Positions 3,001 through 6,000 of a stretch of 32,454 nt of DNA are shown piece after piece. Position 1 is the first letter of the stretch; the number at the start of each line of letters is the position of its first letter. Location of the stretch: the IMG/VR virus record IMGVR_UViG_2874945390_000003. One strand, given 5' to 3'. A program made the position numbers. The stretch comes from a virus. Lineage: Duplodnaviria > Heunggongvirae > Uroviricota > Caudoviricetes.

Positions 3001-6000
3001 GCCATCAACGCCCACCACCGGAACGATGCCGTTCTGCTTATCAGGGAAGGCGTAAATTTCTTTCGTCCACGGATTAAGGCCGTACTGGTTGGCGACGATC
3101 AACAATGCGATGAACTGCGCATCGCTGGCATCACCTTTAAATGCCGTCTGGCGAAGAGTGGTGATCAGTTCTTGTGGGTCGACAGAATCCATGCCGACAC
3201 GTTCAGCCAGCTTCCCAGCCAGCGTTGCGAGTGCTGTACTCATCCGTTTTATACCTCTGAATCAATATCAACCTGGTGGTGAGCAATGGTTTCAACCATG
3301 TACCGGATGTGTTCTGCCATGCGCTCCTGAAACTCAACATCGTCATCAAACGCACGGGTAATGGCTTTTTTGCTGGCCCCGTGGCGTTGCAAATGATCGA
3401 TGCATAGCGATTCAAACAGGTGCTGGGGCAGGCCTTTTTCCATGTCGTCTGCCAGTTCTGCCTCTTTCTCTTCACGGGCGAGCTGCTGGTAGTGACGCGC
3501 CCAGCTCTGAGCCTCAAGACGATCCTGAATGTAATAAGCGTTCATGGCTGAACTCCTGAAAATGGCTGTGAAAATATCGCCCGCGAAATGCCAGGCTGAT
3601 TAGGAAAACAGGAAAGGGGGTTAGTGAATGCTTTTGCTTGATCTCAGTTTCAGTATTAATATCCATTTTTTATAAGCGTCGACGGCTTCACGAAACATCT
3701 TTTCATCGCCAATAGAAGTGGCGATAGTGAATTTAGTCTGGATAGCCATAAGTGTTTTATCCATTTTTGGGAACTCCTGGCTGATTAAGTACGTCGATGA
3801 GTCGTTTCCATCCGTCACGTAATTTACGGGTGATTCGTTCAAGTAAAGATTCGGAAGGGCAGCCAGCAACAGGCCACCCTGCAATGGCATATTGCATGGT
3901 GTGCTCCTTATTTACGCTTTAAATTGCTCCGTGTATTCACTCGTTGGAATGAATACACAGTGCAGTGTTTATTCTGTTGTTTATGCCAAAAATAAAGACC
4001 AACTATGCGGCCTCGGAAGGAAGTCCAATCATCTTATTCAAATCTTCTACCCGTAAAGCAGGAAGTGCTGTACTTGCTTTATCTGCTTCTTTTGGTAGCA
4101 ATTCTTTGCTTTCAGGCCAAACTTCAATAAGTCGCTTAACTGTTGTGACTGAGTTCAAAGCAGCCCATACATTTGATTCGATATCCTTTTTCCTGGCTTT
4201 AAGTTTTTGTTGCAATGCGCAGATTTCATCAAACCTTTTTGTTATTTCGTGTTCTGCGCTAAACATGTATTTATCTCTGGTCGGAGTAGGGAGCAATATA
4301 TCTTCGCCGTTGCCGTCTTTCCCATATGAATACCATCCAACCCTTCTGCCAGATACAGTCAGATAAATTGAAGTAGAACGAACATCGCATGAGTAAAATG
4401 AACATCCCATCTTTTCAAGTTCTTCACTTATAGCTACCAACTTGGATGATAACTGATCCACTTCCTCAGTTTTCTTCTTCCCGCCAAACGCAACAACTCT
4501 GGCGTCAAGTGCAAGCTGGTTCTTTAGCTTTGTTACTTCTTCAAGTTCAGTGAACACCCCGGACTTAATTAAAGCGTTGCGTGCTATTACTTCTTTTATT
4601 CTCGTTGTTAAGCGGATTGATGACATATTAATTCCTCTCAAATAAGTGGTTTGCTGCCTGATTTCATTTTCTGGCGACCAACACAAGTCATCTTGCTGTC
4701 AGCTGTTTGGATTTCCTGTAGCCTGCCGCGTAAAGAGCTACGTTTGGAAGACATACACCAGTTTCTGGTTGCTTATGTCCAAACTCATTCGCGTACACAA
4801 TGGCCGCTCGCTCCAGATTGCGTCTGTATTCTTTCTGCTGCCAGATCACGTCCTGTGCCATGAACTTAATTGGCTTAGCGTCTTCTATGCGCTCAGGCGT
4901 TTCGTGAGTACCTTTAGCCTGAATCTGCGCTCTGCTTAGAGTGGGGCGGTGTAATACTTCTGAACTTATTGCTTCTTCGCGGGCCAGTACGCCGTTAGCT
5001 AATGCCTTTGCCTTTAAACGCTCACGACGACGAGAACGTGAATTGCCTTTGAACTGAGTTCTGCGTGTCATATGGACCTCCTGATGAACTTTGGTGGTGT
5101 GGTAGGTGGGAGACCCATTTTGACCTGTTTCGGCCTACTTCAATTCGGCAATAGTCCCGCAGGCCTCGCCGCTTTACGTGCGACATATTCCCGTCCATGA
5201 ACCCTTCACCACACCCCAAAGTTCACTTTGGTTATTGCGCTTTGTCAGCGCCGTAGATTCATATTCGAATCGTTGTATATTCACCGCCCTGGTGAGTAGT
5301 GCGTCCTGCTGATGGCTTAAAGATAACCTAGGTTATAGCAGTGGTTAATAACTTAATTTATGGATTCTAATAAATAAGTTATAAGTGATGGATAATAAAG
5401 GTATTTTATTTTTGTAAATGTTGCGGATTGGTCGGTATTGGAAGGGGGGCGCTGTATTGCTGGCGTGTTGGTTCGTGGTTTACCGCATTTGCGGCTGTTA
5501 AATATGGGGGACGATCGCGAGGCAAAGAAAATCCGGCGCGGAAGCCGGGTTTGAGATTTAGTTATTTTCAGCAGCTCGGATAAGAGCGGAAGTGCTGACG
5601 AACATGTTCGAGCTCACCGAAACGTATGCGGCAGTAACTGCGCACATAAACTGGCTTGTCGTGTTCGTAGATGAAGTCATCGCGATTAACATCGTGAGCC
5701 ATAGCTTTTCTCCTGTTTTTGTATACAGCCTGTTTACCCGAACAGGTTGTAGTTTGTTGGGAGAACCGCTATCCTTGGCTTGCGGTTGCCAAGGGTGTAG
5801 CGGTAGGTAATCCTCCATACACTTCGGAAATACTGGAAATATTTCCGACCCCAAAAGCCCCGTTGCCGCGGGGCTTTATTCTTTTGTTCCGCCATCAATC
5901 ATAGCAAAAGATTCCACAATCAGACTGATACGCTTGGCTTCATCTTTTGTCAGGTCGCGAGGCAGGTTGCCAATGGTGACGATAAGATCTCCGCGCAATG

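Follow-up and report, generated by a model that had tools for sequence, protein, structure and literature searches.

What does the 207-amino-acid (aa) open reading frame (ORF) between N and cIII in the early-left operon of a lambdoid prophage encode, and what might its product do? The locus lies in IMG/VR virus record IMGVR_UViG_2874945390_000003 (Caudoviricetes), analyzed as one stretch of 32,454 nucleotides, herein the window. An earlier reading, made from the sequence alone, had placed this ORF at 4003-4626, had recognized no similarity to anything known, and had noted that genes in this slot are often anti-restriction or superinfection-exclusion functions. We found that the protein is, near-certainly, a member of the Nmad5 family ('nucleotide modification associated domain 5', Pfam PF18757). 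Both the gene and its family had been catalogued before and are not a discovery, and the functional name that the family carries is not supported for lambdoid phages by present evidence. Our preferred reading, to which we give a probability of about 0.4, is that the protein is a dispensable early accessory factor that would act non-catalytically, through binding to a component of the host or of its defences, or to the phage replication machinery that defences watch.

Family membership was evident from a full-length match to PF18757 (E = 2.9e-70; residues 4-203 on profile positions 1-206 of 206; 236.9 bits, against a curated cut-off of 27) and from a match to phrog_1965 (E = 7e-82), a PHROG without an assigned function. 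RefSeq calls near-identical E. coli prophage proteins 'Nmad5 family putative nucleotide modification protein', and the E. coli FDAARGOS_944 prophage region carrying a homologue so named has 99.5% identical DNA; the claim that the ORF lacks recognizable similarity therefore fails. Scans of the protein against NCBIfam and, at E <= 10, against PADLOC, whose models describe defence and not anti-defence systems, returned no match. An exhaustive profile search (E <= 0.001) delimited a family of 2271 clusters at 50% identity, and the members it listed were almost all stand-alone proteins of 185-230 aa. PF18757 was the only Pfam domain in all 120 proteins listed by a second search, and no domain fusion that might hint at function was seen among the proteins listed in these two large searches. 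The window protein is likewise a stand-alone, single-domain protein of about 200 aa. Within the window the gene is thus unremarkable, since it is annotated already and belongs to a catalogued family; it is the family that is worth specialist attention, being large and spread over lytic and temperate phages, mostly of Proteobacteria. Nmad domains were reportedly named by Iyer et al. in 2013.

An AlphaFold model of the 207-aa protein, built on a 147-sequence alignment, was confident (predicted local distance difference test [pLDDT] score of 92.3, predicted template modelling [pTM] score of 0.83) and describes an elongated bundle of helices that also has a beta hairpin and, at its C-terminal end, a conserved subdomain. 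Its parts are predicted as follows:

Residues 8-72: three long N-terminal helices.
Residues 86-100: beta hairpin.
Residues 127-158: a 32-residue helix.
Residues 163-182: small C-terminal helical subdomain.
Residues 185-189: flexible linker (pLDDT < 50).
Residues 194-200: short terminal helix.

Remote-homology searches and structure prediction, which the sequence-only reading had called for, thus yielded a family and a confident model but no matching solved structure. Foldseek comparison of the model with the PDB gave no solved relative (best E = 0.59), and a profile search of PDB sequences gave coiled-coil noise only, with E values of at least 0.4. Against viral models, the Foldseek matches at E <= 0.001 were all Nmad5-named or unnamed and uncharacterized phage proteins, and neither RIIB nor any other protein of known function was among these significant matches. 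The modelled fold does not look enzyme-like.

Conservation across the 147 divergent members of the alignment was concentrated in two segments, one N-terminal ('RLT...I..NA..K.G ... R...GG') and a more strongly conserved one at the C terminus ('V.a...vtTvKkL..WPE..ELLP ... LPa..v.dLN..iGLP'). Only P178 and N197 are invariant. The near-invariant positions, most of which are hydrophobic or glycine, are all present in the window protein (I14, A18, R43, G48, G93, T162, L166, W170, P171, E172, L176, P178, L196, N197 and G201). The N-terminal helices have conserved basic residues (R5, K11, K21, K35 and R43), with a family median net charge of +3 over residues 1-75, and the WPE motif has two conserved glutamates (E172 and E175). 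The isoelectric point (pI) ranges from 5.0 to 9.75 across the family, with a median of 7.7, and is 8.6 for the window protein (33 K+R vs 30 D+E). Position 40, within the motif A-E-x-V-R, is Asp or Glu in 82% of the divergent members; it is Leu here (window 4507-4509), and Arg, Gln or Leu in most aligned enterobacterial prophage homologues, so that this group would have lost a catalytic residue if position 40 were one. The middle beta region is variable: a 145-aa member lacks it, the 254-aa Dhillonvirus proteins and one member of 296 aa have a much larger one, and the helical core and C-terminal motif persist where this region is lost or expanded. As the earlier reading had stated, there is no obvious membrane segment (the highest 19-residue Kyte-Doolittle mean is 0.61).

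The gene is flanked by recognizable early-left functions, all on the same strand:

4003-4626, minus strand: Nmad5-family coding sequence, 207 aa, stop codon included (ORF list and sequence).
4632-4639, minus strand: Shine-Dalgarno sequence GAGAGGAA, 5 bases before the ATG (direct reading of the sequence).
4688-5071, minus strand: N antiterminator gene, 127 aa, immediately upstream (Pfam N_peptide PF25694, E = 9.8e-16).
5237-5251, minus strand: candidate nutL boxB hairpin GCGCUGACAAAGCGC, with a 5-bp stem and a 5-base loop, upstream of N (reading of the sequence).
3757-3897, minus strand: cIII gene, 46 aa, next downstream (Pfam Lambda_CIII PF02061, E = 3e-30).

The ORF runs from an ATG at 4626-4624 to a stop codon at 4005-4003, as first described. 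A TTG at 4686 is possible on paper as an alternative upstream start and would overlap the end of N. Because the N termini of the 147 divergent homologues ('M..RLT') align with the ATG at 4626, the ATG is the right start and the 207-aa product is the real one; the description of the ORF as well initiated was borne out. Kil, Gam, Bet and Exo come after cIII, all on the minus strand, and upstream of N lies the hairpin at 5251-5237, a candidate nutL boxB by its resemblance to that of lambda. The placement of the gene in the early-left operon between N and cIII is therefore upheld.

The gap between N and the start of the gene is 61 bp and contains no terminator-like site or significant RNA structure (terminator scan and RNA folding), and 105 bp separate its stop codon from cIII. 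A weak terminator-like hairpin follows the gene (4014-3995), with a predicted stability no better than that of shuffled sequence. No convincing intrinsic terminator that would tell immediate-early from N-dependent expression was found on either side, predicted RNA stabilities being equal to those of shuffled sequence. A consensus scan of 3500-6000 returned no promoter-like sites, vs 4.3 expected by chance. We infer that the gene is co-transcribed leftward with N from the early-left promoter; since it would be, the protein should appear when lytic growth or induction begins and be absent from a repressed lysogen. Compared with 50 distinct alleles from viral contigs, 49 of which were intact, the ratio of nonsynonymous to synonymous polymorphism (pN/pS) of the gene is 0.17-0.35. 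The gene is under purifying selection and is more than a chance ORF. This viral-contig scan returned only near-identical lambdoid loci and served for selection and synteny, not for diversity. The sequence-only reading holds in part: this is a genuine gene, in what proves to be a variable accessory slot just after N, but it is no orphan and belongs to the catalogued Nmad5 family.

Proteins 93-95% identical to that of the window occupy the same position in HK542, mEp235 and Stx1a-converting phages (94-95% for the HK542 and mEp235 homologues), and Kapi1 matches at 95% DNA identity in the same slot, as do several other phages. These lambdoid copies are annotated 'hypothetical protein', the HK542 copy being gp33. 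Among the E. coli lambdoid relatives, the N alleles upstream of the gene differ, some being only 38% identical, and the distance to cIII downstream is variable (+729, +845, +1245 or ~+1790 bp). In another lambdoid the Nmad5 gene is the first after the repressor region, and in lambdoids it lies upstream of Gam-Bet-Exo or of Erf-Abc2. Within E. coli lambdoids, the gene behaves as a mosaic cassette. The near-identical copies in HK542 and mEp235, which are plaque-forming laboratory phages, offer a simple genetic setting in which Nmad5 function is directly testable.

The name Nmad5 derives from synteny with thymidine-hypermodification genes in M6-like phages. In the M6-like Pseudomonas phages SN1 and Lydia and in a PaMx11-like contig, the Nmad5 gene is found between aGPT-Pplase1/HMUDK_hel and the dUMP hydroxymethylase gene. 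Elsewhere the settings are diverse. An N4-like Salmonella phage and one contig of 69 kb carry the gene beside ThyX and an exonuclease gene, and in Enterobacter phage ST22 its neighbour is an HD hydrolase gene. It lies in the nin region of SPN3UB, is one of several small early genes in a row in Vibrio phage D267, separates the terminase from the portal gene in two contigs, and in one case belongs to a module of polymerase and single-stranded DNA-binding protein genes. In Dhillonvirus and Vibrio phage P23 it is a lone opposite-strand gene among head genes. Most of the sampled contexts contain no modification genes, and the association with such genes is not general across the family.

We also looked for the pathway in the lambdoids themselves. 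Using 14 seed proteins (hydroxymethylase, ThyX, 5-hydroxymethyldeoxyuridine [5-hmdU] kinase, aGPT-Pplase, PLP and radical-SAM), tblastn (E <= 0.01) detected no modification-pathway homologues, whether in the window or across the 39 kb of the complete HK542 genome, and the HK542 annotation lists no such genes. The combination of dUMP hydroxymethylase, 5-hmdU DNA kinase and aGPT-Pplase transferase in the same genome, which marks thymidine hypermodification, is thus not seen here, and the co-occurrence with modification enzymes that gave the family its name does not extend to the 207-aa protein. In M6, the pathway was reconstituted with lysates of gp51-55, gp51 and gp54 alone being enough for the first product, and an Nmad5 homologue is nowhere mentioned in that paper (PMC8989533). 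By synteny with SN1, the M6 homologue would be gp56. As a separate observation, two annotated glycosyl/glucosyltransferase genes adjoin an HNH endonuclease gene near the right end of the HK542 genome (36330-38239).

For Nmad5 proteins a single phenotype has been reported, escape of Dhillonvirus phages from Tmn (PMC11846954), which ties the family to this defence system. Escaping phages carried Nmad5 K216E, or K296E in a longer annotation; reversion of the substitution brought Tmn sensitivity back, and its introduction alone gave escape (PMC11846954). Deletion of the Nmad5 gene gave no escape, phages without the gene could nevertheless be constructed and spotted, and attempts to clone it failed, apparently because of toxicity (PMC11846954). 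Because the point mutant escapes while the null does not, the change is gain-of-function-like and resembles an altered binding surface and not the loss of an enzyme. The Dhillonvirus homologues that we retrieved were all ~254 aa, and residue 216 of one of them is the second Lys of T-D-K-K-L-I-K-A-W-P-E, which aligns with R165 of the window protein. The escape Lys would therefore correspond to R165, as mapped on this retrieved homologue. It falls in the T-x-K-K-L-x-x-W-P-E helix, the most conserved helix of the family. Tmn itself is a membrane nucleoside triphosphatase (NTPase) that is switched on when its helical arms directly contact RIIB of T2, an early, replisome-associated phage protein (PMC13001434, a 2026 preprint).

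A counter-defence role for the 207-aa protein is plausible on indirect evidence, namely its slot, its fold and what Tmn genetics showed for the distant homologue. In our preferred reading, Nmad5 would be produced together with N, or right after it, as lytic growth begins, and would bind a host or host-defence component, or the phage replication machinery that defences watch. It would act by binding and not by catalysis, and chemical modification of DNA by the protein appears improbable. Several observations weigh against this reading. The Tmn-escape authors themselves favour a DNA modification that Tmn senses (PMC11846954), and the homologue tied to Tmn is ~30% identical to ours, with a different middle region and genomic setting. 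In several lytic phages the Nmad5 gene is beside a thymidylate-synthase-type gene, an adjacency that suggests a link to nucleotide metabolism rather than defence. The conserved polar residues R43, T162, E172 and N197 could form an active site, in which case the fold might be that of a new enzyme. Finally, when leading regions of conjugative plasmids were considered as a sign of anti-defence genes, no Nmad5 homologue was found on a mobilizable plasmid, all six of the matching plasmid records being typed non-mobilizable.

A broader version of the idea, which we regard as rather unlikely, is that Nmad5 constitutes a large family of new structure whose members serve phages in counter-defence or host takeover, the family name being an artefact of synteny in one phage group. 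In that version, the C-terminal subdomain (T-x-K-R-L-x-x-W-P-E ... LN..IGLP) could dock on a conserved protein of the host or of a defence system, such as a Tmn-like membrane NTPase by way of its helical arms, and the variable middle could set specificity. If so, the lambdoid copies, as the first genes made after N, would be the most tractable members (HK542 and mEp235).

Three other explanations were weighed against the preferred one. Nmad5 might be an accessory protein of replication or recombination that binds DNA or the replisome, an explanation that partly overlaps ours and that we consider unlikely. It would account for the recombination genes that adjoin Nmad5 in lambdoids and for its polymerase, primase and exonuclease neighbours in lytic phages, and it is consistent with the placement in replication modules, with the basic character of the N-terminal helices, and with the sensing of replisome-associated RIIB in T2 by Tmn, to which the Dhillonvirus homologue is genetically tied (PMC13001434). 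Against it, the wide range of pI means that overall charge is not conserved in the family, no known DNA-binding fold matches the model, Dhillonvirus can do without the gene (PMC11846954), and some phages carry it as an insert among head genes, on the opposite strand. A different proposal takes the family name at its word and makes Nmad5 a subunit, be it accessory, targeting or regulatory, of a pathway that modifies nucleotides or DNA; in lambdoids it would have to act on DNA or the nucleotide pool with host enzymes or unrecognized partners. Neither the window nor the complete HK542 genome encodes a homologue of a hydroxymethylase, DNA kinase or transferase, the fold is unlike that of any known enzyme, and most sampled contexts are without modification genes; the silence of the M6 pathway paper on an Nmad5 homologue (PMC8989533) points the same way. 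We therefore find this proposal quite unlikely, even though the gene does lie inside a hypermodification cluster in Yuavirus and PaMx11-like phages, beside ThyX in N4-like phages and beside an HD hydrolase gene in ST22, and even though modification was assumed by the authors of the Tmn paper (PMC11846954).

The remaining alternative, a superinfection-exclusion or prophage defence gene like sieB of lambda, is very improbable, because the protein has no membrane segment, no promoter-like site of its own in 3500-6000 and no PADLOC match at E <= 10, and because its operon should be repressed by cI in the lysogen. Only the slot position speaks for it. Nmad5 is also common in strictly lytic phages, and the prophage has a likelier candidate for a module expressed in the lysogen in the DUF3024/PDC-S43 gene downstream of cI and its neighbour, which head the list of other features in the window:

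6599-6940, minus strand: DUF3024 protein, 113 aa, downstream of cI (PADLOC candidate defence family PDC-S43, E = 3.7e-42).
5876-6409, minus strand: 177-aa protein without a family, downstream of cI (ORF).
5568-5702, minus strand: 44-aa ORF with the rex-slot genes on one side and the presumed pL region on the other (RefSeq hypothetical protein in a near-identical prophage).
334-1609, 11246-12515 and 17552-18822: three copies, at least 99.6% identical, of an IS3-family insertion sequence (IS) element of ~1.27 kb (100-aa and 272-aa ORFs).
23896-25092, minus strand: IS110-family transposase, 398 aa, inserted among tail and baseplate genes.
29148-30791, minus strand: IpaH-type type III effector, 547 aa (NEL E3 ligase domain, E = 7e-77, plus LRR).

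The two genes of 5876-6940 occupy the slot that rexAB has in lambda, are followed by a strong bidirectional hairpin (5854-5877), and together form the likelier lysogen-expressed exclusion module. The 44-aa ORF contains a perfect boxA-like CGCTCTTA (5586-5579, minus strand), and a GC-rich hairpin with a T-run comes after it (5548-5533). The IS3-family element is labelled IS600-like by RefSeq in a matching genome; its first copy abuts a 3' integrase remnant (1-372) and another follows a DnaB-like helicase ORF. The prophage is probably defective. Matching regions are present in enteroinvasive-type E. coli genomes, which, with the effector itself, suggests that the window originates from Shigella or enteroinvasive E. 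coli.

How does the 207-aa protein compare with known systems? Lambda carries the genes for Ral, SieB and Ea10 in the variable region between N and cIII, and the likeness of these proteins to ours is one of position only: none of their families is among the Pfam hits of the protein at E <= 10. SieB is a membrane protein, unlike the window protein, and a SieB-type gene, with a membrane product and its own lysogen promoter, was rejected as a model on the hydropathy maximum of 0.61 and the lack of a promoter-like site in 3500-6000. A DNA mimic of the Ocr/ArdA type was also ruled out, since the pI of the protein is 8.6; the family median is 7.7 and no fold match was obtained. The 'NMAD' system of DefensePredictor was rejected as a relative as well. 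It is Nmad2 (PF18753), a separate Pfam family that is absent from the protein's Pfam hits at E <= 10. Nmad2 of the validated E. coli defence system NTTI shares with Nmad5 the name and an association with thymidylate-synthase and 5-hmdU-kinase genes (PMC13092281), and the result obtained for NTTI should not be transferred to Nmad5.

Within the family, the 254-aa Dhillonvirus protein shares the N-terminal 'RLT' helix and the C-terminal T-x-K-K/R-L-x-x-W-P-E and LN..G.P motifs, with ~30% identity over half the protein. It differs in its much larger middle region and in being encoded, unlike the window gene, on the opposite strand among the head genes of a virulent phage. The Nmad5 proteins of M6-like Yuavirus (SN1_019 and Lydia PaL_00002) are 33% identical to the C-terminal 87 residues of the 207-aa protein; at 186 aa they belong to the same size class, and they have a similar early DNA-metabolism setting. 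Their genes are embedded in a thymidine-hypermodification cluster, whereas the window and HK542 are without such genes, and even in M6 no catalytic step is assigned to the Nmad5 homologue. The closest counterparts are HK542 gp33, the mEp235 and Kapi1 homologues, and RefSeq WP_038341315.1, which share the family, the length, the single-domain architecture and the slot after N. Nothing material separates the window gene from the HK542, mEp235 and Kapi1 homologues; its own marks are the Leu at position 40 and its residence in an IS-ridden, probably defective prophage.

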